From a virus (taxonomy: Duplodnaviria; Caudoviricetes), in the IMG/VR virus record IMGVR_UViG_3300036784_000179, positions 1 to 59,390 of that record: a stretch of 59,390 nucleotides of DNA, one strand, 5' to 3'. The notes below the pieces were generated by a model that saw only the letters and a program-made list of their open reading frames with translations, searched no databases and was not told the DNA's origin. The first letter of the stretch is position 1. Each line of letters starts with the position of its first letter. Of the stretch, positions 5,405 to 50,117 are shown in pieces. The translations under genes and the position numbers were made by a program.

Positions 5405-6079
5405 CTAAGGGGCCGGCTTAGGCTCCGGCACACCGCTCGGCGGCGGCTTGAGCGGATCTTCGATCAGAAACCAACAATCGCCATACCCAACGACGTTGAC
5501 GTAGATCAAAGCCTTGTTCCCCGTCGACGGCTGGTCTGGCGGCAGGTAGATCGGATGCGAAGGGGTCAGGCCATTGCCCGGCGGGGGTATCTCCTCACCA
5601 GGTGGAATGACGATCGGGTGCGCCGGCCCGCCGCCGGGGGCGATCGGGTGTGCGGGATATCCGGGTGACGGCCAGATTTCCACGGGCGGCAACACGATAG
5701 GGTGCGCCGGAACCCCCGGTGCAATCGCATCGGGCGGCAGCACGATCGGGTGCGCCGGATGCCCGGGTGACGGCCAAATTTCCGGCGGCAGATAGATTGG
5801 ATGCGCAGGTACGCCCGGAGCAATTGCCCCGGGCGGTATCACAATGGGATGCGCCGGAAAGACCGGCAGGTAAATCGGGTGCGCCGGTACGCCCGGGGCA
5901 ATTGCGTCGGGCGGTATTACAATGGGGTGCGCCGGCCCGCCGCCGGGGGCGATCGGGTGTGCGGGATGCCCGGGTGACGGCCAGATTTCCACGGGCGGCC
6001 CGCCCGGCATTGGACCGCCGCCGACCTCCAGACCCGTGTAAGTCATTGTCCCGATAATGGTTACCGGAATAGATGCCAT
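5405..6079 (-). CDS. Proline-rich PAHPI-repeat protein
   Basis: Ten P(A/S)HPIxxP repeats; AAGGA RBS. Confidence 0.85.
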   Translation of the reverse strand: MASIPVTIIGTMTYTGLEVGGGPMPGGPPVEIWPSPGHPAHPIAPGGGPAHPIVIPPDAIAPGVPAHPIYLPVFPAHPIVIPPGAIAPGVPAHPIYLPPEIWPSPGHPAHPIVLPPDAIAPGVPAHPIVLPPVEIWPSPGYPAHPIAPGGGPAHPIVIPPGEEIPPPGNGLTPSHPIYLPPDQPSTGNKALIYVNVVGYGDCWFLIEDPLKPPPSGVPEPKPAP

Positions 6080-6388
6080 TATTTCGTTTCCTTTTCACTG
6101 GGAAAGCGCGAGGCCCCTCGCGCGGAGTACTCCCAACCCAGGCACCCACAGGGGCCTGCAGGTGCCGCCCTACCCTCTGCCAGACGGGGACCCCCGCCGG
6201 GCATACCTCGGGTTCCAAAGAAATTTGGGAAAAACGTTGATCTTGCCGGTCGTGGTTTGGCTGGCGATGCGGGGCGCTGTCGTCCTGGTGACGCGCTAGA
6301 CAACCGCCGGCGAAATGGCGTAACCCAGGGTCAACGCGATCCTCGCGCGTGCATCCCTCGGTTACAACCGTTTCAAAGGCACACCCTG

Positions 6389-7066
6389 ATGAAAACCCCC
6401 CTCCTCGCCGGTGCCGCCGCAATCGGATTGCTCGCCGCCCCCACGGCACAGGCCGACCTGGCCTTGACCGTCAGCGACAACGGCGTACCAATCGCCGGTT
6501 GCGCCACCACCACCCCCTCACCGCTCTCGATCACCTGCTCAAATGCCAATTTTAGCGCAATCCAGGTTGTCTCGCAGGGTGTCCCGACCCTGCCTTCGCC
6601 CGATCTCGGGACGATCTCGATCTCGGCGACCGCCGGCCCATTGGCCGCCGCGCACGACCTCGATTTGAGGATTGTGCAGACCGGGCTCAGCGACTTTCCG
6701 GGCGGCCCATCATCGACCACCTTTGCGCAAAATTCGCTAATCGGCATTCCCGGGCCGGCGAGCTATCACATGATCTTTGACGGAGTCGACATCGCCGACG
6801 CGATCTTGCCGCGGAGCCTCGACCCGCAGACCGCCGGCCCGTTCCTGGTCAACCTCGCGGCGGTCTCAAGCGCCTTTACCGACAGCCAAGAGATCATCGC
6901 GACCTTTGGCCCGTCGCTGCAGACCCAGCAATTGCAGTCGAACGCGCAGTTTCAGGTCATCTCACCCGCGCCCGAGCCGACCTCGCTCGCACTTCTGGGG
7001 GCGGCACTCCTCGGCATGGGTTGGCTGACCCGGCGGCGCCGAGGTGCCGATCAAGCATCGTGGTGA
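6389..7066 (+). CDS. PEP-CTERM sorting-signal surface protein
   Basis: Signal peptide MKTPLLAGAAAIGLLAAPTAQA; C-terminal APEPTSLALLGAALLGMGWLTRRRR. Confidence 0.92.
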   Translation: MKTPLLAGAAAIGLLAAPTAQADLALTVSDNGVPIAGCATTTPSPLSITCSNANFSAIQVVSQGVPTLPSPDLGTISISATAGPLAAAHDLDLRIVQTGLSDFPGGPSSTTFAQNSLIGIPGPASYHMIFDGVDIADAILPRSLDPQTAGPFLVNLAAVSSAFTDSQEIIATFGPSLQTQQLQSNAQFQVISPAPEPTSLALLGAALLGMGWLTRRRRGADQASW

Positions 7067-7104
7067 TCGCTAGCGCCGATCAGCGACAGGCTCGCTTTGC
7101 CGCG

Positions 7105-7272
7105 ATGACAGAGCCCGATGAGTCCGCGACAAAACCTGACATTTTGGCGGTGATTACCGCCGTCGAACGGTTGGAGCGCGCGCACATCCGGCTGATCGCA
7201 ATACTCATCGGCCTCACCGGCGGCACATTGCTCGTCGCGGTGCTGATTTTCGCCTTTTTGTTGAGGTTATGA
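7105..7272 (+). CDS. Small membrane protein, paralogue of 1531-1752
   Basis: MTEPDE.ATKPDI...ERLERAHIRL plus TM helix. Confidence 0.6.
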   Translation: MTEPDESATKPDILAVITAVERLERAHIRLIAILIGLTGGTLLVAVLIFAFLLRL

Positions 7273-7285
7273 CGACCGCTTGACT

Positions 7286-7648
7286 TCACGGGGTCTGGGT
7301 CTGGCCGGCAAGCACATAGCCCGCAATCGCGGCAATCGCGGCGATCGCCGCACTCCCCTGAATTTTATCGTCGATCGCCAAAATCACGATCGCCGGCACG
7401 ATGATCAGCAACGCCATCGCGCGCTGCAGCAATTGCCCGTGTGTGACGATCTTCGAAATCTCAACCATCGCATCGGTCGGCGCTTGAAAAAAAGCCACGC
7501 CGACGATCAGCGTGGCCGAGACAAACACCAACGCCAGCAGTCCAACGCATGGCCACGCCAACGCCACCAGCAATTTGCTGCCATTAGTGGCGTTTGGCGA
7601 CCCCGCGGGAGCCGCCGGGGCCCCCGGCGCCTCGTTAGGCGACAACAC
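7286..7648 (-). CDS. Membrane protein with ~3 TM helices (holin candidate)
   Basis: Three hydrophobic stretches; last gene of the late operon; holin role is only a guess. Confidence 0.55.
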   Translation of the reverse strand: MLSPNEAPGAPAAPAGSPNATNGSKLLVALAWPCVGLLALVFVSATLIVGVAFFQAPTDAMVEISKIVTHGQLLQRAMALLIIVPAIVILAIDDKIQGSAAIAAIAAIAGYVLAGQTQTP

Positions 7649-7656
7649 CGCCTCGT

Positions 7657-36809: not shown

Positions 36810-37841
36810 CTAGTTGATCAGCACGCCTTGCAAAAACGCGTTAGACATGGTCATGTTGCCGGCCCATCCGACAAGTTTGACCATCGCGTCTTGATTGACG
36901 GTAAATCGGTCAGGATTGAGCGGCGTCATGTTGCGCTCGCGATGTGGTCTTAGAAATATATAATCTGTATTCAGAAAATACATATGGTTTGACGGCGCAC
37001 CCGATAAGGTTGCCCAGGTGATGCCGCCACCAATCGGCCCCCCGGTGCCACCCGCGACCCCCTGAAAACCACCATCGAATACGACATCGGCATCCATGAA
37101 TTTGAGCGACTGAAAACCAGCAACACCCTCGCCTGGGCTAGTAATACGTTGTATAGCTTGCAATGACTCCCAATAAAATGTAAAGTAGGCGTTATCAGCG
37201 ATAATTAAATCTGGTCGATCTGTACCACGCACTTGGTTGAGCCATTGCCTATTCATCATGGTTTGCATCGTGGCAGTACCTGCGGTGAGCCCGGCCGCAG
37301 TAAACGAACCAATATAGGCGCGCCAGAACGGCCACAGTCCGCGATCGATACCGCCGACCACTCCCGAGGTCTCGACATCGGCGACCAGCAACTGCAGACC
37401 GCCGATCTGCTTGCCGCCGTCGAGCGTGCCATTGCCGTAGCAGTCGCCCGAGATGCCGTTGGTCATCGTCCGTTCGGCGTTGCCGATGCGGCTTTCGAGC
37501 AGGTCGATCATGCGCTCGACCCCGCTGTTCTGCAATTCCTCGAGACCGCTGATCGAGACCGCCACCGCAGCCTGCGCCCACGGGTATTGAGCCGCAGTAA
37601 ACACATCGGAGGGTGAAAGATTGAGGACGTCGTATCCTGAATATCTCTTGTAAGTGCCGTTCTCCGAGTATTCGAGCTCTTGGACAATTGCTTGCCCACC
37701 GTCGACCGGCTTGACTTTGTTGCGCTGGCTGAGACGGGCGAGGATTGCGTTGTTTTTGGTGACGTTGTCGGCGAGCTTGCGCGACCGGCTAAACAAGGTG
37801 GTGGTCGTGATTTCACCCCAGTTTGGATTTGGCGAGGGCAT
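36810..37841 (-). CDS. Major capsid protein
   Basis: 343 aa after scaffold; TTT...R...LADNV...NA.L..L...GG..I...LEY..N....YSGYD.L...YFLNT.YI...GN.T.SN...QG.L. Confidence 0.92.
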   Translation of the reverse strand: MPSPNPNWGEITTTTLFSRSRKLADNVTKNNAILARLSQRNKVKPVDGGQAIVQELEYSENGTYKRYSGYDVLNLSPSDVFTAAQYPWAQAAVAVSISGLEELQNSGVERMIDLLESRIGNAERTMTNGISGDCYGNGTLDGGKQIGGLQLLVADVETSGVVGGIDRGLWPFWRAYIGSFTAAGLTAGTATMQTMMNRQWLNQVRGTDRPDLIIADNAYFTFYWESLQAIQRITSPGEGVAGFQSLKFMDADVVFDGGFQGVAGGTGGPIGGGITWATLSGAPSNHMYFLNTDYIFLRPHRERNMTPLNPDRFTVNQDAMVKLVGWAGNMTMSNAFLQGVLIN

Positions 37842-40717: not shown

Positions 40718-40885
40718 CTAAAGCGCTCCTACCAGCAGCAAGATCAGCACGACGATCAGCACGGTTCCCAGCATGCCGGCCGGATAGTAGCCCCATTGCT
40801 GGCTATACGGCCAGCGCGGCAATCCGCCGGCGATCAAGAGCACCAGCAACACAATCAGGATGACCGCGACCGGCGAAGCGTGCAT
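40718..40885 (-). CDS. DUF3309-family small membrane protein, 55 aa (absent from ORF track)
   Basis: ILIVLLVLLIAGGLPRWPYSQQWGYYPAGMLGTVLIVVLILLLVGAL. Confidence 0.85.
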   Translation of the reverse strand: MHASPVAVILIVLLVLLIAGGLPRWPYSQQWGYYPAGMLGTVLIVVLILLLVGAL

Positions 40886-40888
40886 CGG

Positions 40889-41128
40889 CTAGACCCCGAG
40901 CCGGCGCGCCAGGGCAGACGGCAGACCAGCCCGCATCAGGGTCGCCATCGGGGTGGTTTTGCCGGCACCCGGTGTGTCCGAGCCCAATAGTTTGGCTTGT
41001 GCGGCGGGAAAGCCGACCCCAAACAATTCGATCATCAAGGCGCCATTTCGTCCGTCGGTGCCGAGCAACCGCGCTTGCGCGGCCGGCATGCCCGACGCCA
41101 CCAAATCACGCATCACCGCTGCCATCAA
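40889..41128 (-). CDS. Small GMPxAQARLLG-repeat protein
   Basis: Three motif copies; GGAGGG RBS. Confidence 0.7.
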   Translation of the reverse strand: MMAAVMRDLVASGMPAAQARLLGTDGRNGALMIELFGVGFPAAQAKLLGSDTPGAGKTTPMATLMRAGLPSALARRLGV

Positions 41129-41141
41129 ACCCTCCCCGGGA

Positions 41142-42005
41142 TCACACCATCCCGCCGAGATCGCGTGACAAGAGATGGGTCGCGCGCGCCTGTTCCAATG
41201 CCGCGCGCTGCTGGATCTCCTGACCCTCCTGGTTGAGCTCGGCGACGCGCAACGCGCCGTCCTGCTGGATCTTGCGGGTGTCGGTCTGCGCCTCGATGTA
41301 GGCCTTCATTAGTTCGACCGAGTTTTTCTGCTGCTGCGCCTGGACCTTGGCGGCGTCGATCGCCTGGTCGCCTTGCGCGGTTTTTGCCTCGACCATCAAT
41401 TCCGCCGGCGACTTGCCGCCGCCGCCCTTTTGCTGCTGCCCATCCGGCGGGGTCGGCGGCGACTGGGCGAGGATCCGGAATGCTTGCTCAAACACCGGTT
41501 CGAGACCACGCGCCGAGGGAAACGCCCGCACCCCAAACATGACCAACGCCGCGGCCAGCGGTGCCACCGCCGGGTTTTGCTGAACTTCGGGGATGATCAT
41601 CTGCAGCATTGGCATGATTGCCTGGAGAAACTCGCTGCGCGCGGCTTTTTCGGCCTGCTCGTCGGGCGCCACCGTCGAATCGGCCTCGATGTCGATCTTG
41701 TAGCCGGTCGAGACATCGTGGCGGAGCAGGTGGCAGCCGCCGAGGAACTCGGTGCGCCGCCGTGTGGTTTCGGCATCCCAAGCGGCTTTTTGCTGGCGCC
41801 ACTGGGCAAACGCCGGATTTAGCATCATCCCCGGCGGCACCATGCCAAAAGGCGCCCCCCCGGTCACCGAACCCGGCGGTGGGCCGGGCCGTCCCAGGGC
41901 AGGCGGCCCGGCCATCCCCGATGCGGGGCTCGGTCCCGCCGTCCCCCCCGGCGGCATCGGGCTGCCGCCCGGAAAGCCGATCACGTTGCTACGCTGTTCG
42001 GACAC
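41142..42005 (-). CDS. Portal protein, C-terminal part (separate ORF)
   Basis: LLR.D...Y.IDIEADST...DEQAEK..R.EFL motif and Gln-rich coiled-coil barrel typical of portal C-termini; AAGGA RBS before GTG. Confidence 0.7.
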   Translation of the reverse strand: MSEQRSNVIGFPGGSPMPPGGTAGPSPASGMAGPPALGRPGPPPGSVTGGAPFGMVPPGMMLNPAFAQWRQQKAAWDAETTRRRTEFLGGCHLLRHDVSTGYKIDIEADSTVAPDEQAEKAARSEFLQAIMPMLQMIIPEVQQNPAVAPLAAALVMFGVRAFPSARGLEPVFEQAFRILAQSPPTPPDGQQQKGGGGKSPAELMVEAKTAQGDQAIDAAKVQAQQQKNSVELMKAYIEAQTDTRKIQQDGALRVAELNQEGQEIQQRAALEQARATHLLSRDLGGMV

Positions 42006-42080
42006 GGCTAAATCCTTTCGGCCATGGCCTTACACCCCTCACCAATCCAGGCGGCTCGGCGCAAACATCGCCAAGCCCAA

Positions 42081-44231
42081 TTAAAAAGCCGGCGGCGCGC
42101 CGGCAAACGGATCGTGATCGACCGGGATTAGCCGCCACGGGCGTGGCGGGTTGGGGACTACCCCGTATTGCTGGATTTGCGGGCTGGTTTCCCAGACTCG
42201 GGTGCCGCGGTCGGGGCTCCATCCGTGGGTTTGGGCGAAGTGTTCTTCGATTTGAGATACGCGCGGCCCCAATGCGGCGAGTAACTCCGCGGACCTTCTC
42301 TGTAGATCGGGTCGTCCGGTCCCGGCGATGGCTTCCAGATAACCTTGACCATTGCCCTGCTTGCCCCAATCGTTGGTCAGATAACCATTATCGGCAAAAG
42401 CCGGCGTCAATTCAGCCTTGTCGACACCTGCAAAATCAGCGCTATCGAGCGCTTTTGCAACGTGCTTTTGAAAATCGATATTTTTGATCCCCGAGACCGC
42501 CGGGACGTTGAGCAATCGGAACCCGTTCTGGGTGGCGATCGGCGAGAAGAAATCCGAGCCGGTGGTCTGGTGCATCGCCTCGACCACCGCGCGCGCCTCG
42601 GCAGCGTCGAGCCCGCGGCCGATATCGACATCGACCATGTTGCTGTCGCCCGGTTTGAGGCTCTCCCGATAGGCCGGCATGTGCCAGGCGCTGGCGTCCT
42701 GGCGCAACAGCAGCCCACGGGTCGCCTCGGCAGCGGTCAAGAGATCGCGGGTCGACGGATCGACCCCACCGAGATAACCACCTTGCAATGCCGCGCCGGC
42801 GAGGCTTTGCGCCTGACTGCCCGGCCGCACCCGGCCCTCAAAGACCCCGGGGCCTTGGAACGAGGGTGTGATCAGATCGCGGCCCTGCGGGTCCTCCAAT
42901 ACCCCGCGGATCGCGGTGTGATAGGCCTCTTGGTCGATCGGTGCGGCCTGGTGGTACTCGGGCAGATGCGCCGCCGCGGTTTCACCGGGCGCACTCTCCC
43001 AGCTCTGCTGAGCAAAGCGCGATTTTAGCGCGTCGGCAAAGTTGAACGCGGCATCGCCGACTGGGGTGCCTTCGACGTCCGCTTTCTTGCCGGCCCAGAC
43101 CGCGGCCTGGATCTGCTCCGGGCGCCAGTCTTCGCCGGTCCGAGCATTCAATACGTCGGCCGCCCGGTCGGCCAAAATTCTGGTGAAATTGTGCTGCCCC
43201 AAACTCGGCGCGCCGGTGTAGTAGGCCGCGTCCTTTTCGGCGCCGAGCTCGGGCGGGTACTCGGCTGCACGCATGTTCCAGATATCGTTGACAAAGGGAT
43301 GCCCCTGCGGGTCGGGGTTCCAGGTCAGACCCAATGCAGTATGAAAGGGTCCGGTCTTCTCGCCGGTGATCGGGGCACCCTGGTAGAGCAGCGGGGCGGC
43401 GCGCGCGCCGATCTGCCGGCCACCCTGACCACCAACCGCCAACACCGGTTCACCGGTCATCGCCTGGTTCCACAGGGTGACGGCCTTGGCTGCATTATCG
43501 GCGACACTGGTGCGCGGCGAGGACACCGCCAGGGCCGCGGCGAACCGATCGGCCGCCTCGGGATTGCCCGCCGCCGCGAGGATCGCCTGTCCGCTTTTGG
43601 CGTACCAGTCGCGCGCCGCCGCACCGGTTTCGGCGAGGCCGGCATAGCGGTTGACCAGCCCGTCCATGTCTTCCGGGGTTTGGATATGGGGCGGCGGGCT
43701 AACCGGCTGCTGGGCGCCACTGAGCGGCAACCCGTCCTCGCGTGCCAGATGCTGGGTGCGCAAATCCGCGGCAAACTGAGCGGCTTTGAGCGTGTCGTCG
43801 ATCGGTGTCTCGAGCGCCCCCGCCGCGCGACCGACCCGGGGTCCGGCGCCGAGCACCACCCCGGCGCCGCCGCCCGGCACCGGACCGGCCAGACCACTGC
43901 GCACGATGTCGGCGAACGCCGGCACGCGCCCGGTCAATTCCCCGCTCTGCGGGTCGAGACCGATCAACGGCTGGGTCGAGTAGTCGCGGCTGAGCAACCC
44001 CGCCTGGCTTTCCAGACCGCCGCGCGCGACATCGGTAAATGACTGACCGATATCGCTGAGCCGCTGCTTTACGTGCGCTACCGGCTGCTGCCAGAAATCG
44101 GCGAGGTCGTGACCGATCTTCTCGAGATAGCCTTGTGGCGGCGGCTCGGTGAACGGATCGTGGTCGACCGGGACCAATGTCGCACCGCTGCCGCTCGGGT
44201 CCAAATACGGGTCGACCCGATCTTCCGACAT
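42081..44231 (-). CDS. 716-aa protein flanked by L(V/I)PVDHDPF motifs with a central putative DNA-acting helical domain
   Basis: Motif at both termini; core DWY...A..SPRT.V..N...K..PF..AL...VND.W..R...Q.QAAVW. Confidence 0.75.
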   Translation of the reverse strand: MSEDRVDPYLDPSGSGATLVPVDHDPFTEPPPQGYLEKIGHDLADFWQQPVAHVKQRLSDIGQSFTDVARGGLESQAGLLSRDYSTQPLIGLDPQSGELTGRVPAFADIVRSGLAGPVPGGGAGVVLGAGPRVGRAAGALETPIDDTLKAAQFAADLRTQHLAREDGLPLSGAQQPVSPPPHIQTPEDMDGLVNRYAGLAETGAAARDWYAKSGQAILAAAGNPEAADRFAAALAVSSPRTSVADNAAKAVTLWNQAMTGEPVLAVGGQGGRQIGARAAPLLYQGAPITGEKTGPFHTALGLTWNPDPQGHPFVNDIWNMRAAEYPPELGAEKDAAYYTGAPSLGQHNFTRILADRAADVLNARTGEDWRPEQIQAAVWAGKKADVEGTPVGDAAFNFADALKSRFAQQSWESAPGETAAAHLPEYHQAAPIDQEAYHTAIRGVLEDPQGRDLITPSFQGPGVFEGRVRPGSQAQSLAGAALQGGYLGGVDPSTRDLLTAAEATRGLLLRQDASAWHMPAYRESLKPGDSNMVDVDIGRGLDAAEARAVVEAMHQTTGSDFFSPIATQNGFRLLNVPAVSGIKNIDFQKHVAKALDSADFAGVDKAELTPAFADNGYLTNDWGKQGNGQGYLEAIAGTGRPDLQRRSAELLAALGPRVSQIEEHFAQTHGWSPDRGTRVWETSPQIQQYGVVPNPPRPWRLIPVDHDPFAGAPPAF
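42158..42352 (-). CDS. Possible small overlapping ORF (PDDPIYxEGP) nested in the 3' end of 42081-44231
   Basis: Same strand, different frame, ATG start; no independent support. Confidence 0.3.
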   Translation of the reverse strand: MVKVIWKPSPGPDDPIYREGPRSYSPHWGRAYLKSKNTSPKPTDGAPTAAPESGKPARKSSNTG

Positions 44232-44296
44232 CGGCCCTCCCGTCCGCGGCTTGCGATTTCAGGCATATGGCCGTACATAACGGCAGAGGGGTGCCC

Positions 44297-44599
44297 ATGA
44301 ACGAGAACAAGTTCGTCAACGCGGTCTTTCAGGTCGAGCAGCTGGTCGGCCGCTTTTCCCGCTCGCCGACCCGACAACGCCAGGTGGTGACCAGAGCACT
44401 CGCCGACCTGATCGCCACCCTGCCTTTTGAGGAGCATCCCAGCTTTATCGCCGCGGTCGTCAGCGAGCTCGTGCTGTTCAGCCAGATCAGAACCATCGAG
44501 GACAACGACATCGAGCGCGATATCGACCGGCTCGACGAACTCGAAGAAGATCTCGCCGCCGCGAGCCTGGCGCTCATCAAACCCTCCGGGGAGGCCTGA
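44297..44599 (+). CDS. Hypothetical protein (moron)
   Basis: AGAGGGG RBS before MNENKF; opposite strand to flanks. Confidence 0.7.
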   Translation: MNENKFVNAVFQVEQLVGRFSRSPTRQRQVVTRALADLIATLPFEEHPSFIAAVVSELVLFSQIRTIEDNDIERDIDRLDELEEDLAAASLALIKPSGEA

Positions 44600-44621
44600 G
44601 TTCCTAGGAGCGACAAAGACC

Positions 44622-44864
44622 ATGACGGGCACCGAATTGCGCGCCTTCCGCAAGCGATTGGGCGTCTGCTTTGCGGCGCTCGCACTGATGTGCTCCCTAC
44701 CGTTTCTTGCCCCATGGGGTAAGTACGCAGAGAACGACACGCTATATTTCTACCGCTGGAATAATGGTTTTACGATCCGAGTCTTGCACTGTGGCGTGAT
44801 GATCCACTGGGAAGATGGACTCCGCGTCCACCCGCTCGATCCGTTGTGCTATTTCCATGATTGA
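44622..44864 (+). CDS. Hypothetical protein (moron)
   Basis: AGGAG RBS; begins like an HTH helix 1 (MTGTELRAFRKRLG) then becomes hydrophobic. Confidence 0.55.
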   Translation: MTGTELRAFRKRLGVCFAALALMCSLPFLAPWGKYAENDTLYFYRWNNGFTIRVLHCGVMIHWEDGLRVHPLDPLCYFHD

Positions 44865-44875
44865 GTGACAGCAGG

Positions 44876-46645
44876 CTAGGCCACCATCAGGTATTTGCCG
44901 GGGCGCCTGGGGTCGGGCACGTAGTGCCGGCCGTCTGGCGCCCGGCGGGCACCAGGGACCGAGGAAACAACCGGGGGCCCCGGCCGTCCGGGAACCCCGA
45001 TGCCCGGCCCCGGTTGAGCGGGACCAGGCGGTGCCGCGGCCCCGCCGAACATCGGTCCGGGCCCGGGCGGTCCCGCTGCCGGCGCTACTGCGGGGGCACC
45101 CGGCGAGGGCAATGCCGGGCCACCGCTCAACGGACCCGGCGCGGGGGCGGGCGCCGGAACAAACATTGGCGGCGGCGGCGGAAGCACCGGCAGCGGTTGC
45201 GGCAACCCGGACATCCGCTCGAGGGTTTCCGGGTCAAAATGGCGTGCCATGACGGCCCCGCGCAAGCGCATCAAATCGCGGGCAAACCGCGCCACGTCCT
45301 TTTGCGCGCGGGTGATCCGGCGGGTGGCGAATTGGGTTTTGAGCTGTTGGGCGCCCAAGGTCTCGATCGGGTTGGTCTCACCCCGCAGAATGTCGGCGAT
45401 GCCGGTCGTCTGATAGATGATCCGCAGAATGCGCTCGCGGCTGTCGTAGAGCTGGGTCAACACCCGCGCGATTTGCTCGACCGGCAGCCACTGGATGAGG
45501 TTCTGCAACCCGCCCTTGTCACCGGCAAACCCGGCCCAATCCTCGACCGGAAAAAGGCGGTTTTCGCTCGAATCGTCGACCAGTTGCTGGAGCACCATCT
45601 TCTCCGACCCGGCATAGACGCCGGCGACCTTGAGCGCGCGGGTCAATTTGTCGATCCGGCTGGTGATTACATCGAGTTCCTGACCTTGGTCTTGATATTC
45701 GATGTAATCAGCGACCGCCACCCGCTGATTGTTAGTCGTCGTCGCGCGCAGACAAGGTGGCGATGGGAAAAAGTCAGGTAATTCGAGCGGATCTTCTTGT
45801 GTATCGAGCGGCCCTTCAGAATAAGACTTGGCAATCCACACGGTTTTTTTGGTCTTTTTGTCCCAAATCTCCCAGACCGTCGCTTTTTTAAACATATCCG
45901 CGAGCGGGCCCTGAGTCGCCTCGCTGGCCACCGCATGCACCCCCGAAGGGGTGTAGTCAAGCCCGACCTTTTTGCCGATTTGCGACCCAAAGCGCGCGAC
46001 GAGCTCGTCGCGAATCATAAACACTCGGTAAGCCTTCCACCAGATCTCGTCTTCGGTTCTGGCCGGGGTTTCCCGGTAATCCTCCCAAAAGACATAGCGG
46101 ATCGGAGCGCGCTCGTTGGCCACCGGGCGAAAGCCCGGCTTTTTGCCGTCTTCGTCCTCTTCGCCGTTGGGGTCCTCTTCTTCGGCGCCAAATTCGGGCT
46201 CGTAAAACACCCGCGCCACCCCGCGACCGGGCAATAACCGGTCCTCGACAACCTGCTGCATGACCGCGTCAAATTCCTCGATGTCCTGCTCGTAATCGAG
46301 GGCGGCCTCGAGGATCTGCGCGCCCAGGCTGGCGACCGGATCATTCTCGTCACGGTGGCGTCTTGCAACGTCAGGTTGTGGCGTACGCCCGTAGAGCACG
46401 GGCTTGAGGGTCTCTACATTTGACCATAAAATGTTGTATTTTGCGACCCGCGCCTCGTTGGCGTCGCGCTCGTCGCGAAACCGGTCGACGATGCGCCGAC
46501 CGCGCTTGATAAAATCCTCGTCCTCGCGCTCGGCCAGGCGCAATTGCGCATCCCAAAACTGCCAAATCGCCGAGGGCTCGGTGCCGAGGTCCGAGCGCTC
46601 CTCGATCGTGCCGGCGACCACGGCCGCCACCGCGAGATCAGCCAT
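44876..46645 (-). CDS. Portal protein, N-terminal part
   Basis: YNILWSNVETLKP.LY..TP.PDV.RR, D.LLPGRG.ARV.Y, DPL.L..FFP.P, IYQ.TGI.DI.RG, ET.GAQ.LK; downstream of terminase. Confidence 0.9.
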   Translation of the reverse strand: MADLAVAAVVAGTIEERSDLGTEPSAIWQFWDAQLRLAEREDEDFIKRGRRIVDRFRDERDANEARVAKYNILWSNVETLKPVLYGRTPQPDVARRHRDENDPVASLGAQILEAALDYEQDIEEFDAVMQQVVEDRLLPGRGVARVFYEPEFGAEEEDPNGEEDEDGKKPGFRPVANERAPIRYVFWEDYRETPARTEDEIWWKAYRVFMIRDELVARFGSQIGKKVGLDYTPSGVHAVASEATQGPLADMFKKATVWEIWDKKTKKTVWIAKSYSEGPLDTQEDPLELPDFFPSPPCLRATTTNNQRVAVADYIEYQDQGQELDVITSRIDKLTRALKVAGVYAGSEKMVLQQLVDDSSENRLFPVEDWAGFAGDKGGLQNLIQWLPVEQIARVLTQLYDSRERILRIIYQTTGIADILRGETNPIETLGAQQLKTQFATRRITRAQKDVARFARDLMRLRGAVMARHFDPETLERMSGLPQPLPVLPPPPPMFVPAPAPAPGPLSGGPALPSPGAPAVAPAAGPPGPGPMFGGAAAPPGPAQPGPGIGVPGRPGPPVVSSVPGARRAPDGRHYVPDPRRPGKYLMVA

Positions 46646-47067
46646 CAGGCAGCCACCGGCGGCGGGTCGAGGTCTTCGAGTTCGGCGGCGAAGAGGCTCT
46701 CCTCGGTCTCGACAACATGAAACTGGTCGCCGTCATTAACCTTGCGGCCCTGACCGCCGCGAAAGCGGATCACCCGCTGCGCCACCGGATGGCGCAGCCA
46801 CTGGTCCCACACCAGAAGCCCCTCGGCGGTCCGTTCGACAAAAACCGCGGCGTGCGAGCGCCCGTCGGTGTGGTTGCCATAGCGGCCGTTGGGGTCAAAG
46901 GTCGCGATCACCGTGCCAAGCGGCAAATCGCCGTCGCGCGCCTTTTTACCGGGTCGCCATCGAGCGGTGTGCGGCAGCTCGCCGACCTCCTGGACAAAGC
47001 GCACGCAATGCCCGTCGGCGATGACCCGGCCGGCATGGCGCTCGGGGCGGTCGACGACAAAACTCAT
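46645..47067 (-). CDS. BPSL0067/Tae-like cysteine peptidoglycan amidase (endolysin candidate)
   Basis: GHCV.FVQ...T..W..G...GT.IATF...G.Y.N......HAA.F......G..V.DQW with Cys/His dyad. Confidence 0.8.
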   Translation of the reverse strand: MSFVVDRPERHAGRVIADGHCVRFVQEVGELPHTARWRPGKKARDGDLPLGTVIATFDPNGRYGNHTDGRSHAAVFVERTAEGLLVWDQWLRHPVAQRVIRFRGGQGRKVNDGDQFHVVETEESLFAAELEDLDPPPVAA

Positions 47068-47108: not shown

Positions 47109-47900
47109 CTAAAATATGGCACCTTCCGGCGGCCGCACGCCGTGCGCGCAGCACACCTCGCACAACTCGCGAAGGCATTTTTTCCCGAAGTTCGGGACGC
47201 GCAACAGCTCGGCGCCGCGCATTTTCGCCGCCGCGCGCAACGTGGTGATCCCCTCGTAGGTCAGCGCGTTTTTTAGCCGGGTGCTGACCCCCAGGTCGGC
47301 GATCGGCCAATCCTCCAGCGCCGGTTCCGCCGGTTCCGCCGGTTCGCCGCGCAGTCGGCTGTTCTCCTCGGTCAGTCGGCTGTTCTCCACGGTCAGGGCG
47401 CGCCAGGAGGCCTCGACCCGCGCCATCTCCTGGCGATGTGTCCGCCTGGCGTACTCCAGACGCTGCTCGAGCAACGCCGTTCGCTGTTTGAGGGCCTCAT
47501 TTTCCGCCGTCAGCTGCCGGGAGGCCTCGACCCCCGCCATCTCCTGGCGCTGCGTGCTCCAAAAACTCTGCTCGAGCTCTGTCGTCCGCAGTTTGAGGGC
47601 CTCATTTTCCATCGTCAGGCGCCGCGCCAGGTTTTGCAGGTCGATGATCGTTTGATTGACCCCGCCCCGGTCCCAGCCGGCGTCCCAGCGGTTCCCACGA
47701 TCCCATGAGGCAAACACCGGCGCCGCAACCGGCGGCGCCTGGCCACTGGCCACCAAGCTCTTCAGATCGACCCAGCTGAGCCCAGCCTCGCGCAGCATCG
47801 CTTGCGCCAAATCGCGGGCGTTTAGCGCCTCGCCCGCGGCCGAGGAGCCCATCATGCCGACGATTTTGGCGAGTTTTGACCAATCGAGCGGGGCTCCCAT
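47109..47900 (-). CDS. Coiled-coil protein with C-terminal RNA polymerase alpha-CTD-like domain
   Basis: PIADLGVSTRLKNAL..EGI......ELLRVPNFGKKCLREL matches alpha-CTD; N-terminal KL.K..G...S...GEA.NA motif. Confidence 0.85.
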   Translation of the reverse strand: MGAPLDWSKLAKIVGMMGSSAAGEALNARDLAQAMLREAGLSWVDLKSLVASGQAPPVAAPVFASWDRGNRWDAGWDRGGVNQTIIDLQNLARRLTMENEALKLRTTELEQSFWSTQRQEMAGVEASRQLTAENEALKQRTALLEQRLEYARRTHRQEMARVEASWRALTVENSRLTEENSRLRGEPAEPAEPALEDWPIADLGVSTRLKNALTYEGITTLRAAAKMRGAELLRVPNFGKKCLRELCEVCCAHGVRPPEGAIF

Positions 47901-47912
47901 GGGCGAAGATTT

Positions 47913-50117
47913 TTAGATGCGCTCGGCGCGGCCGTCACCAATAAACCGCCCACCCCGGTAATAGCGCTTGTCGACCTTGTAGAGCTCATCGAGGGTCATC
48001 CCCTCGATCCCCCGCCCTTGCTCCTCGACGGGCTTGGGTTTGGAGCCGGGAACCATCTCGTCGAGCATCCGGCCGACCAACGAGAGGGTATCGATTTGAT
48101 CGTCATACTTGCCCGCCGGAAAGCGCAGCATCTCATCGAGCAGCCCGGCCGCCCAGGGGGCCCGCTTGGGCAGATGGACCTTGCCCATCGCGATGCGCCC
48201 GCGGATCGCCTGAGCGCGCACCGCCTTGTCGGCGCCCGAGCTAAATTGCCTGCGAACGGCGTAGACCTTGCGCTCCAACTGGCGCTTGGTCAGAAACGGT
48301 CCGACACCCTTCTCGATCTGCCCGGCTTCCTCGGCCCAGGTGATCGTTTTCCACAGTTCCATCAAGTCGATCGCCGCCTCGACCCACTCGTTTGAGGCGG
48401 CCTGCTTGCGCCACAGATCGAGCACATAGAAATCATCGTTCGGGTCGAGCCCGCCGACCATGTGCACGGTAAAATCGCCGGCATTCGCCTTGACCGCATA
48501 ATCCGAGGCGCCATAGGTGCGCAATTGGTCGCGCGGCGGCGGGCTGTCGTACCAGCGCACCCAATCGTTCTTGAAATAGTCCCCCGATTCGGGCATCGGC
48601 CGCTGCTGGTAGAGTGCGGACCAGTTGCGCGGGTCGCGCCGGGCCTGCGCCAGCATCTCATCGGTGTACCACTCAGCCCACAAACGCTCACCGGGGAGCC
48701 GACCCAGCGCATCGTTCTCCTCGGCTTCGGCCGGCAGACTGACGACCTCCCACTGCTCGCCACCGGTCTTGGCCTCCTCGAGGAGGCGCCCGGCGAGATC
48801 GTCCTCGTGCCACCGGGTGCCGATGTAGATCAGCGGTGCGTCGGGAACCAAACGAGTCCAAAAATCCGATTTATACCAATCATGTACGTGTTGCCTGATG
48901 GTCGCGCTATCCGCCTCGGCGCGGCCTTTGACCGGGTCATCGATGATCCCCAGATAGGCCCGCCGGCCGGTCACCGAGGCGTCCACGCCCACGGCAAAAT
49001 ATTCCCCGCCACGGGCCGTCTCCCAGCGCCCGGCAGCCCCGGAATCGCCCGACAGCCCAAACCCAAACGTGTCGCGAAACACCGACGAGCCGACGATGTT
49101 GCGGACCCGCCGGCCAAACCGTTCGGCGAGCTCTTTGGAATGGCTGGCGGCAATCACCGAGTGGGTCGGGTGGTTGCCGATATACCAGGACGGGAACAAC
49201 ACACTGCCATAGGTGCTTTTGGCCGCACCTGGCGGCAAAAAGAACATCAGCCGCTTGATTTCACCGCGCGATACCGCCTCCAGCTTGGCGATCAGCAACT
49301 GATGATGGCGTGCCGGCACGATTTCAGGCATCGCCAAGCCAACCCAGCGGGTCAATTGCTCGCGCGCCGCCACCCGAGTGGCCTCGGCCGCCGCTTCGCT
49401 CGCGGTTTGTCCCAATTCGGCGTCGATATTGACCCGGATCCAATCGGGATCGCGCTCGCTGGCAAAGGCGGCGTAGGAGAACCCCTTTTTTTCGAGCGCC
49501 GGGAGATTCTCGGCTTCGCTCGTGCGCCCGCCGGGCTGACGAAAGAGCAAGAGATCGCCCGGGTCGTCGGACCTGCGCACCAACCAGTGCCCCGGCGGCG
49601 GCATCCGCGAGGAGCAGATCACCCCCGACCAAATCGCCCCGCCGGCGATCGGCGCCGGAAAGGTGCCAACGACCCGCAGCGCATCCTCGAGGATTGTTTC
49701 ACTGAGATTTCTTGCGTCGTCGAGCCAAACCCCGGTCGCCGAGGCCGACGCCAAGCGCTTGCGGTCCCCAGCATCGTCCATCCCGAGAAAATCGAGCTCG
49801 AGCGAGCGCTGGCCGCCGTCCCCCACCAATTGATAGCTCAACGCAAAATGGCGCAGTTTCTCGTCATATTCGCCCAAATCGAGCCAGGTTTTGATCGCCG
49901 GGACCGTATAGCGTTCGAGCTCACGCCGGATCGGCGCCACGACGAGCCAGCGCCAAGCGGTCTGCTTGGCGTAGCGGCGATCGGTGGCGCGGCGGATGAT
50001 ATCGTTGACGCAGGCACTCTTGCGACCGCCATAGATCGGCCCGATCAGCGCCCGCAAAAAGGCGTTGGAGGCCGAAAATGCGCGCAGCTGCGCGCCCTGC
50101 GGCTCGTAGCTCTGCAT
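47913..50117 (-). CDS. terL: Terminase large subunit with extra N-terminal degenerate terminase ATPase domain
   Basis: PPGAAKST (Walker A), IIDDP (Walker B), TRWHEDDLAGR, ALYQQRP, nuclease D and FP.GK.DDQID. Confidence 0.93.
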   Translation of the reverse strand: MQSYEPQGAQLRAFSASNAFLRALIGPIYGGRKSACVNDIIRRATDRRYAKQTAWRWLVVAPIRRELERYTVPAIKTWLDLGEYDEKLRHFALSYQLVGDGGQRSLELDFLGMDDAGDRKRLASASATGVWLDDARNLSETILEDALRVVGTFPAPIAGGAIWSGVICSSRMPPPGHWLVRRSDDPGDLLLFRQPGGRTSEAENLPALEKKGFSYAAFASERDPDWIRVNIDAELGQTASEAAAEATRVAAREQLTRWVGLAMPEIVPARHHQLLIAKLEAVSRGEIKRLMFFLPPGAAKSTYGSVLFPSWYIGNHPTHSVIAASHSKELAERFGRRVRNIVGSSVFRDTFGFGLSGDSGAAGRWETARGGEYFAVGVDASVTGRRAYLGIIDDPVKGRAEADSATIRQHVHDWYKSDFWTRLVPDAPLIYIGTRWHEDDLAGRLLEEAKTGGEQWEVVSLPAEAEENDALGRLPGERLWAEWYTDEMLAQARRDPRNWSALYQQRPMPESGDYFKNDWVRWYDSPPPRDQLRTYGASDYAVKANAGDFTVHMVGGLDPNDDFYVLDLWRKQAASNEWVEAAIDLMELWKTITWAEEAGQIEKGVGPFLTKRQLERKVYAVRRQFSSGADKAVRAQAIRGRIAMGKVHLPKRAPWAAGLLDEMLRFPAGKYDDQIDTLSLVGRMLDEMVPGSKPKPVEEQGRGIEGMTLDELYKVDKRYYRGGRFIGDGRAERI

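Follow-up and report, generated by a model that had tools for sequence, protein, structure and literature searches.

Two reading frames for one portal protein

The viral record IMGVR_UViG_3300036784_000179 (Duplodnaviria; Caudoviricetes), which is rated 99% complete and was analysed over all of its 59,390 bases (the window), carries a portal gene that is divided between two open reading frames (ORFs). The portal is the ring for DNA entry to and exit from the phage head, and the assembly of its 12-mer nucleates head assembly. An ORF of 589 amino acids (aa; 44876-46645, minus strand) represents what we call the N-half, and an ORF of 287 aa (41142-42005, minus strand) the C-half. From the N-half stop at 44876 to the C-half start at 42005 extends a gap of 2,870 nucleotides (nt), here called the seam, with three genes inside: a gene for a 716-aa protein (42081-44231, minus strand) and two ORFs on the plus strand, all of which an earlier note, made from the sequence alone, had located between the halves.

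The same note had read the two outer ORFs as parts of one portal gene, and both match a single portal profile. In PHROGs, residues 21-482 of the 589-aa ORF correspond to positions 14-474 of the 715 positions of phrog_12082 (E 1.6e-137) and residues 92-275 of the 287-aa ORF to positions 527-711 (E 4.7e-24), leaving the profile unmatched only in the linker at positions 475-526. By these matches the two ORFs together are the front and the back of one portal. The N-half shares 35-50% identity with single-chain portals up to residue ~480, and 30-35% with the portals of Mx8, Mx9 and a Brucella phage. The C-half ORF, for which alignment to intact portals had been proposed as a check, aligns to the C-terminal parts of the single-chain portals of loci L029, L032, L035 and L040 and of Mx8, its folded part covering residues 598-812 of the L029 protein. 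Pfam returned no family at E≤0.01 for the N-half, the C-half or the 716-aa protein, and sequence searches of solved structures with the same three queries gave no meaningful match.

Each half consists of a folded part and an extension towards the seam, as the note had described from the translations. The folded core of the N-half (residues 1-482; 45200-46645) is defined by the phrog_12082 match, which ends just past ...HFDPETLERMSG. It is followed by ~80 Pro-rich residues, a spacer whose length varies among relatives (residues 483-560; 44966-45199), and then by ...PDGRHYVPDPRRPGKYLMVA, the conserved C-terminal tail (residues 561-589; 44879-44965) ending in ...VPGARRAPDGRHYVPDPRRPGKYLMVA before the stop codon at 44876-44878. 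The C-half begins with a GTG start and the head peptide M-SEQRSNVIGFPGG (41958-42005) and continues with a Pro/Gly-rich spacer of varying length and sequence (residues 17-58; 41832-41957), after which the folded part (41142-41831, including the stop codon) resumes with ...LLRHD..YKIDIEADST..DEQAEK. The GTG is preceded by an AAGGA motif at a distance of 7 nt. In the database, the C-half gene is called from Met55 and gives a protein of 233 aa; we favour the longer ORF because its head, MSEQRSNV[IV]GFPGG, recurs in L005, L007, L017 and several database homologues.

We tested the fold on P0187, a single-chain relative of 746 aa that is 53% identical to the N-half, using a 42-row alignment. The model (predicted local distance difference test score, pLDDT, 78.3; predicted template modelling score, pTM, 0.69) is that of a canonical podophage portal. 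Foldseek matched it to the Pan3 portal 9vyf at E 3e-12, and structural alignment gave a VIA Z score of 31.1 to Pan3 9vyf_H, a Z of 26.3 to N4 9yf5_PA (root-mean-square deviation 4.4; model residues 16-645) and a Z of 22.6 to P22 5jj3_A (model residues 23-634). The seam corresponds to a coil at P0187 residues 491-521. A 40-residue helix (441-480) and a short helix (483-490) precede this coil; it is followed by a helix of 44 residues (522-565), the strand FRIDIE (570-574), three further helices (584-649) and, at the end of the chain, a helix of 79 residues (666-744). In the usual portal nomenclature, these elements belong to the long wing helix, wing strand, crown and barrel. The break point thus falls, in the relative's model, in a disordered Pro-rich loop of the canonical fold. 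By homology, the clip, the stem, the long wing helix and the greater part of the wing would belong to the N-half. The folded C-half would contain one long helix, then the wing strand YKIDIEADS, three helices of the crown and the long helix of the barrel. Because the C-half gives a helix and a strand to the wing, it is predicted not to be an autonomous domain, and the two chains would have to co-fold. The strand motif is the best conserved part of the C-half, residues I106, A108, D109, S110 and T111 being invariant across 52 sequences.

The length of the loop differs among relatives. In the distant single-chain portals of L035 and L040 it has ~10 residues, in the single-chain sister group represented by L029 and L032 it is a Pro/Gln-rich stretch of 70-100 residues, and in the clade of the window it is broken.

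The split among related phages

A search of viral contigs with the N-half yielded 66 loci, each of which was sorted by following its reading frame. At 16 of them both halves occurred as separate ORFs on the same strand in the order N-half, gap, C-half; at another 10 the N-half stopped in the linker and the contig ended 968-2,072 nt further on. We treat these 26 as split-type loci. The portal was a single continuous ORF at 32 loci, and in the remaining 8 the contig ended within the N-half. Identity to the window separates the types: loci with an N-half at least 51% identical to that of the window are all split, except for the contig-end cases L015, L016 and L026, and loci at or below 50% are single-chain, apart from L037 (50%), where the contig ends within the N-half. 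Split-type N-halves extend across the clade down to 58% identity. The C-half was kept at every split locus with enough sequence (16/16), as well as at L077 and L078, and the same architecture occurs in contigs from many other metagenomes.

Trees of the N-half core were quick maximum-likelihood trees in which the only support measure was the Shimodaira-Hasegawa-like approximate likelihood ratio test (SH-aLRT). The split loci whose N-half bears the conserved tail formed one clade (23 of 65 rows, SH-aLRT 99); when L077 and L078 were included, the split clade was recovered with 17 of 23 rows and a support of 98. The sister group of the tail-bearing clade consists of single-chain portals (L029, L032), with a second split lineage (L030, L031 and L033) nested among them. 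On these trees the break is ancestral to a clade of soil phages, and the portal loop has broken at least twice. A third case may come from a cultured phage on a distant branch, Bradyrhizobium phage ppBjS10J-1 (L002, OP596615), whose portal at 5938-8213 is spread over two frames that overlap, one covering 5938-7506 and the other open over 7374-8213, and is annotated as two 'hypothetical proteins'. The second annotated gene starts only at 7692 and so leaves out the conserved strand motif. This arrangement may be a third break, a (-1) frameshift site or a sequencing error.

The database clusters P0130-P0164, together with L077 and L078, hold split N-halves ending in ...GGNVVPHPAM..AA. Since other members have a similar sequence, NVV[GP]F, at the head of their C-half, the linker seems to have been cut at different points in different lineages.

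Protein collections point the same way. Among the best 120 relatives of the N-half, 31 were single-chain portals of at least 700 aa, and most of the other 89 ended in the linker. A collection of 5.8 billion proteins contained 81 clusters of stand-alone C-halves (157-503 aa). The closest records that bear a name, few in number, are metagenome-assembled genomes (MAGs) labelled Stellaceae bacterium, a family placed by NCBI in the Rhodospirillales, Alphaproteobacteria, in which the two halves have adjacent locus tags. Public records call the portal halves "hypothetical protein".

We estimated the ratio of non-synonymous to synonymous substitution rates (dN/dS) by pairwise Nei-Gojobori comparisons of the window with six relatives at dS 0.6-1.9. 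The N-half core gave 0.08-0.19 in five of the six pairs, the pair with L021 being saturated at silent sites. Its Pro-rich spacer, the most variable segment among relatives, gave 0.26-0.47, its C-terminal tail 0.02-0.37, the folded C-half 0.19-0.52 and the 716-aa gene 0.19-0.31. Both portal halves are thus under purifying selection.

Seam length ranges from 1 nt in L017 (TGA, G, GTG) through 104 nt in L077, both without content, to 4.5 kb in L021 and L022. Because relatives share the seam empty or with different contents, the split is older than the insert. The earlier note had spoken of a portal gene split around a 2.9-kb insertion; the length is right, but the insertion is not what caused the split.

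We consider it probable that the portal consists of two separately translated polypeptides and that the seam serves as a slot for accessory genes. The alignment of the C-half ORF, the recurrence of the architecture in contigs and the purifying selection on both halves bear out the two-chain portal that the note had suggested, and the halves would presumably assemble non-covalently into the ring. The gene would have broken within a surface loop that has ~10 residues in distant relatives and is an expanded floppy insert in the single-chain sister lineage; the seam would then have taken up accessory genes, in the window the 716-aa protein and two orphan ORFs.

Several points weigh against this interpretation. 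The fold was predicted on the single-chain relative P0187 and not on the two halves of the window. The true start of the C-half, GTG 42005 or Met55, is uncertain. Near-copies among the loci (L011-14, L020-23, L030/31/33, L006/7) make the counts overstate the number of independent cases, and all relatives within the clade are metagenomic contigs or MAGs, with no isolate known. The C-half evolves faster than the N-half, reaching a dN/dS of 0.52. Lastly, a candidate terminator immediately precedes the C-half; a strong one would be unexpected within a late operon. This G+C hairpin, of seven G-C pairs followed by TTTTT (42088-42104, minus strand; consensus scan), overlaps the last codons of the 716-aa gene and is the strongest terminator-like one of the region, which has 8 such sites against 6.1 ± 2.6 in shuffled sequences and hence no excess. 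It may determine how much cargo is made relative to the head gene products encoded downstream, or be a chance occurrence.

The last two of these points would also suit a C-half outside the ring, in which case the ring would be crown-less and built of N-halves only, with the C-half as a separate, perhaps optional, inner-head or ejection protein. The halves lie up to 4.5 kb apart, and P22 portal protein without its barrel reportedly still assembles. However, the counterpart of the C-half in the P0187 model includes the 44-residue helix and the FRIDIE strand of the wing, before the crown is reached, and the structural alignments to solved portals pass straight through the seam (model residues 16-645). 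The strand motif is moreover the best conserved segment, and no split locus with enough sequence lacks the C-half. We therefore regard a C-half outside the ring as improbable.

We give even less credence to the parts being rejoined, whether by a self-splicing intron, an intein or split intein, DNA excision or ribosomal bypass. In some huge gut phages structural genes are fragmented by introns, and RNA reads show their splicing, according to the sections of PMC12880540 that deal with them. In the window, the insert holds two ORFs on the opposite strand and a conserved gene on the same strand, the N-half ORF extends ~105 codons past its homology to a tail under purifying selection, and the C-half ORF has its own ribosome-binding site and a conserved head. 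The halves are separated by stops, and their new ends are Pro-rich low-complexity sequence with short peptides and not IntN or IntC. Searching 40800-47000 against Rfam at E≤1 with permissive filters returned no group I or II intron model and a single snoRNA match attributable to chance; Pfam, PHROGs and NCBIfam revealed no Hint/intein, recombinase or homing endonuclease domain in the ORFs of the insert. There is no direct repeat of at least 14 nt between the two linkers, and no assembled contig joins across the insert, although contigs could miss rare forms. To our knowledge, a distance of 2.9 kb is far beyond any ribosomal bypass. The note had also pointed to GRPGPP in both linkers. The motif is indeed present in both, yet only 8 bases are common and form no repeat, which led us to reject it as a recombination scar and to read it as a low-complexity coincidence.

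A dead or dying prophage, its portal inactivated by insertion and both pieces decaying, is less probable again. The IS1595 transposase in the seam of L021 and L022 would suit such decay, but dN/dS is well below 1 in both pieces at dS 0.6-1.9, the same break is found throughout the clade, the nearly complete record has intact structural genes, and C-halves form the 81 stand-alone clusters mentioned above.

An assembly chimera or sequencing artefact, which the note had named as a way in which its reading could fail, can hardly explain the layout: the window is a metagenomic assembly, and the stretch occurs in two soil DNA runs, both of which may be its source, and in no listed RNA run, but a Logan contig of 12,530 nt from a second assembler (run X2, which may be the source sample) spans 41000-46800 and differs from it at no base, and the architecture recurs in contigs of many other metagenomes. 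Two apparent joints in run contigs were discarded, since their 22-23-nt sides came from unrelated contigs; run X1 contained only short unrelated pieces.

Contents of the seam, a portal tail and terminal tags

The 716-aa protein has 14 clusters of close homologues. A profile of these 14 retrieved 1,802 representatives at E≤0.001, 597 of them at E≤1e-30, with the match covering positions ~170-673. Among the best 150 of the 1,802, 70 were no longer than 1,000 aa, 35 had 1,000-2,000 aa and 45 more than 2,000 aa; these last, of which the longest has 4,111 aa, contain the module in the middle of the chain. The 716-aa protein itself comprises this one recognisable core module (~500 aa) and disordered ends. 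It matched DUF7178 (PF23802) with 14.6 bits (E 0.032), below the cut-off of 27 bits; matches at E≤10 occurred in 7 of the 14 homologues (best 5e-4), and among six module relatives that were scanned three passed the Pfam cut-off (46-58 bits). The protein is therefore a divergent relative of DUF7178 and not a member by Pfam's own rule. The same six relatives contained LPD38 (P0228 and P0231), ART-PolyVal (P0226) and InPase (P0224).

An AlphaFold2 model of the 716-aa protein was poor (pLDDT 56.6). Foldseek found nothing at E≤0.001 for it in PDB; in BFVD it returned uncharacterised large phage proteins and a few with polyvalent-protein names, at template modelling scores of at most 0.29, a lead then confirmed by sequence through the profile search and the domain scan of relatives. 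LPD, ART-PolyVal and InPase are signature domains of polyvalent proteins, which, as set out in the relevant portions of Iyer et al. 2017 (PMC5512222), are predicted to be packed into heads and injected, with effector domains also fused to portal or MuF domains. The 716-aa protein is probably a solo copy of a polyvalent-protein core module and an injected cargo. A GGGAGGG motif lies 3 nt before its ATG.

The two plus-strand ORFs lie in a patch of lower G+C (0.59-0.63 versus 0.64-0.73 around it). The 100-aa ORF (44297-44599) probably starts at an ATG preceded by GAGGGG and has a coding-like third-position G+C of 0.77. The 80-aa ORF (44622-44864), with a hydrophobic N-terminus and a likely ATG start preceded by AGGAG, has a weaker coding signal (0.68 over the longer frame 44427-44864). 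Pfam and NCBIfam held no family for either, the 100-aa ORF giving only a sub-threshold match to DUF7737 (E 0.023), and no relative of either ORF was found in viral contigs. The nearest relative, L028, with an N-half 93% identical, does not have them, and its next gene directly follows the N-half. Both ORFs thus appear peculiar to the phage of the window.

The seam is filled differently elsewhere. L005 and L018 carry a highly divergent protein of 933 or 841 aa, and L021 and L022, with their 4.5-kb seam, an opposite-strand IS1595 transposase (PF12762, E 3.7e-39, plus a zinc ribbon; L021:6670-7626, minus strand). In L007 a 77-aa Acb2/Tad1-hairpin protein (PF24729, E 1.3e-9; L007:11974-12207, plus strand) lies beside the homologue of the 716-aa protein. 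This hairpin family comprises anti-CBASS and anti-Thoeris nucleotide sponges, and its presence implies that the seam carries counter-defence genes. The best reading of this variety is that the seam acts as a slot that takes up accessory genes. In the second split lineage (L030, L031 and L033) the seam contains a 169-aa and a 133-aa ORF, both unrelated, and no protein with the PVDHDPF tag described below.

The N-half ends, after its freely varying spacer, in a near-invariant DGRHYVPDPRRPGKYLMVA tail. The end ...PGARLAPDGRHYVPDPRRPGKYLMVA was present at 22 of the 26 split-type loci, and the tail in 29 of the best 120 portal N-half clusters (25 by pattern, 4 variants by eye). It occurs nowhere else in a six-frame translation of the window.

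The seam protein, in turn, has a short peptide near both ends. A pattern scan placed the core P-V-D-H-D-P of its N-terminal tag, ..LVPVDHDPF.., at 44154-44171 (minus strand) and that of its C-terminal tag, ..LIPVDHDPF.., 7 residues before the end, at 42108-42125 (minus strand). At related loci L[IV]PV[DE]HDPF stands at the start, and in most cases also at the end, of the protein encoded right behind the N-half. The N-terminal tag has the same place in the seam proteins of 22 loci and is doubled in L020-27, while the C-terminal tag is present wherever the contig reaches the C-terminus of the seam protein. The only two occurrences of P[LIVM][DE]H[DN]P in the six-frame translation of the window are the two ends of the 716-aa protein, and at related loci, too, the pattern is confined to seam proteins. 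Significant similarity between the seam proteins of the window and of L005 is confined to the C-terminus, which is identical at 16 of 19 positions (E 3e-6); the bodies share 23% identity at a non-significant E of 0.26. Only 5 of the 150 best core-module representatives have the tag. In L024 the seam encodes a 60-aa protein with three copies of PV[DE][HY][DN]PF and short linkers (L024:9683-9865, plus strand), its ATG overlapping the N-half stop; this appears to be a natural minimal version of a tagged seam protein.

Tail and tagged protein occur together at 22 of the 26 split-type loci, and neither occurs at the other four (L017, L030, L031 and L033). L077 and L078 likewise have neither, and no locus has one alone. 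On the tree, L017 and L077/78, which lack the tail, fall at two separate points within the tail-bearing group, pointing to two events in which tail and tag were lost jointly. The tail is a basic peptide, the tags acidic ones.

From this pattern we consider it plausible, albeit on balance doubtful, that the portal tail and the tags of the seam protein form a docking pair, whether directly or by way of the portal body, and so attach the cargo protein to its portal. Since the tail, the tagged gene and the seam lie next to one another, each joint loss could have been a single deletion, and the co-occurrence is largely one gain and two losses; the linkage is suggestive only. A co-fold combining both portal halves with residues 681-716 of the 716-aa protein, run with no controls, gave this scored partner 0.07 and 0.05 against a mark of 0.32, a result that speaks neither for nor against docking. 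The L030 lineage has a conserved tail of its own, ...EGRVTRFGNGQRWT.Q.G.P..., in 5 clusters (P0175, P0189, P0191, P0205 and P0214), which hints that new C-termini at the seam tend to acquire a function.

If docking does occur, the split portal might be a cargo-loading device whose Pro-rich tethers catch the tags of a swappable anti-host effector, a proposal that we make only tentatively. Each of the twelve N-halves would trail a tether of ~80 Pro-rich residues ending in the basic peptide DGRHYVPDPRRPGKYLMVA; with its acidic L[IV]PVDHDPF tags, present on either end, the seam-encoded protein would be caught by these tethers. The tethered effector would sit by the DNA exit channel and be injected first, and the locus, with its cargo gene between N-half and C-half, would work as a modular 'plug-in' site for injected proteins.

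The tags may equally have nothing to do with docking at the portal; they could be address labels for the scaffold or capsid interior, cut sites (Asp-Pro) for a maturation protease or peptides aimed at a host target once injected, and the tail could serve something unrelated, for instance by touching coat or scaffold where the portal sits in the head. This, too, we hold to be possible but short of likely. Acidic tags and a basic tail are compatible with several partners, and in T4 internal proteins bear a short N-terminal capsid-targeting sequence that is removed by the prohead protease. On the other hand, no prohead protease was recognised in the head module by Pfam or PHROGs annotation, the tags are found in the seam protein and not in other head proteins, and tags and tail were gained and lost together. 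A likeness of DHDPF to the C-terminal tip of SSB or the C-terminal peptide of FtsZ, and Asp-Pro self-cleavage as in FrpC, were also considered and are speculation: the tags stop short of the very end of the chain, and there is no processing module behind them.

The genes around the portal are those of an ordinary head module, all on the minus strand, in the order terL, 263-aa gene, 140-aa gene, split-portal region, small ORFs, 430-aa gene and major head protein. The portal halves thus sit between the large terminase gene terL (47913-50117, minus strand; profile match) and the genes for the 430-aa probable scaffold (minus strand, between the portal region and the major head protein) and the major head protein (36810-37841, minus strand; profile match), as is found in the portal family. 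The terminase, the major head protein and the other structural genes of the record are intact. Terminase profiles match the 734-aa large terminase only from ~residue 227 on; the N-terminal ~225 residues are in some relatives missing from the match.

Upstream of the portal, a 140-aa BPSL0067-family protein (46645-47067, minus strand; NCBIfam NF033857, E 7.6e-21) shares base 46645 with the N-half start and is conserved with 67-80% identity in L005, L007 and L028; its Cys/His pattern may be peptidase-like. The 263-aa protein (47109-47900, minus strand) combines a repeated coiled-coil with a C-terminal domain like that of the RNA polymerase alpha subunit (PF03118, E 2.5e-11). Directly after the C-half come a 79-aa protein and a 55-aa DUF3309 membrane protein (40889-41128 and 40718-40885, minus strand; DUF3309 E 7.8e-19). 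The 79-aa protein contains an internal repeat, ..AQA[RK]LLG[TS]D.., and has homologues after the C-half in L005 and within the seam in L010. The sole Rfam match in the window at gathering level was an int-alpA RNA (RF02996; 10458-10529, plus strand; 36.2 bits against a gathering score of 35.8), which fits a temperate, integrase-bearing phage.

Significance and comparison with known systems

A portal of two chains would show where the fold tolerates a cut and thereby offer a handle for engineering and for the study of assembly; it would also mean that a slot for accessory genes can exist within a structural gene that is essential. A docking code, if true, would be a simple, transferable rule for loaded and injected proteins and an alternative to covalent portal or MuF fusions. 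Since the halves are annotated as hypothetical, phage completeness and portal counts in soil viromes are presumably under-called. We found no paper on a split portal of this kind in open-access full text (subscription journals lay outside the search), and the terminal tags and the near-invariant tail appear to be new here.

The portal of the window resembles those of P22 (gp1; 5jj3, 3lj5), Sf6, N4 (9yf5, 9lc1), Pan3 (9vyf), PaP3 (7sxk), Mx8 (gp45) and Brucella phage Tb in family, in fold (judged on the 53%-identical relative) and in gene position. Unlike all portals returned by the sequence and fold searches, which have one chain, it has a chain interrupted in the loop that follows the long wing helix; and unlike single-chain portals, it has Pro-rich extensions with conserved terminal peptides at both new ends and genes between the halves. 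It would thus be a variant of the P22/Mx8-type family that fails a single trait, the single chain.

The layout also recalls the genes-in-pieces of T4-like phages. Examples described in the passages concerned of PMC2988022 are nrdA of Aeh1, split by mobE, the T4 topoisomerase genes 39 and 60 with mobA, and the DNA polymerase genes 43A and 43B of phage 25; reassembly of the pieces is reported there for the Aeh1 reductase and the phage 25 polymerase. As in these cases, an essential single-chain protein is encoded by two ORFs with foreign DNA between them, and reassembly is expected. The T4-type splits covered in those passages affect enzymes and are linked to free-standing homing endonuclease genes, whereas the insert of the window contains no nuclease domain. 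The protein in question is, moreover, a 12-fold structural ring, and its break is old and clade-wide, with changing cargo in the seam.

Another parallel is found in the Jug phages (PMC12880540), where, in the sections on these genes, the portal and other marker genes are annotated as fragments. RNA reads show splicing there; in the window no intron model matched, and each piece has a start, a stop and conserved ends of its own.

The seam protein can be compared with polyvalent proteins, which combine two to fifteen distinct domains in one polypeptide, as the pertinent part of Iyer et al. 2017 (PMC5512222) puts it. Its core occurs mid-chain in proteins of 1,000-4,100 aa with LPD38, ART-PolyVal or InPase, and it shares their neighbourhood of packaging genes. 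In contrast to polyvalent proteins and portal-fused effectors, the module stands alone at 716 aa and is encoded unfused in the portal seam, and the tags are absent from 145 of the 150 best relatives. Like the capsid targeting sequence of T4, the tag is a short peptide at the terminus of a protein that presumably enters the head. Whereas the T4 sequence is N-terminal only, the tag lies at both ends and is sometimes doubled in relatives, no protease gene was recognised (as stated above for the head module), and its presumed partner would be the tail of the portal.

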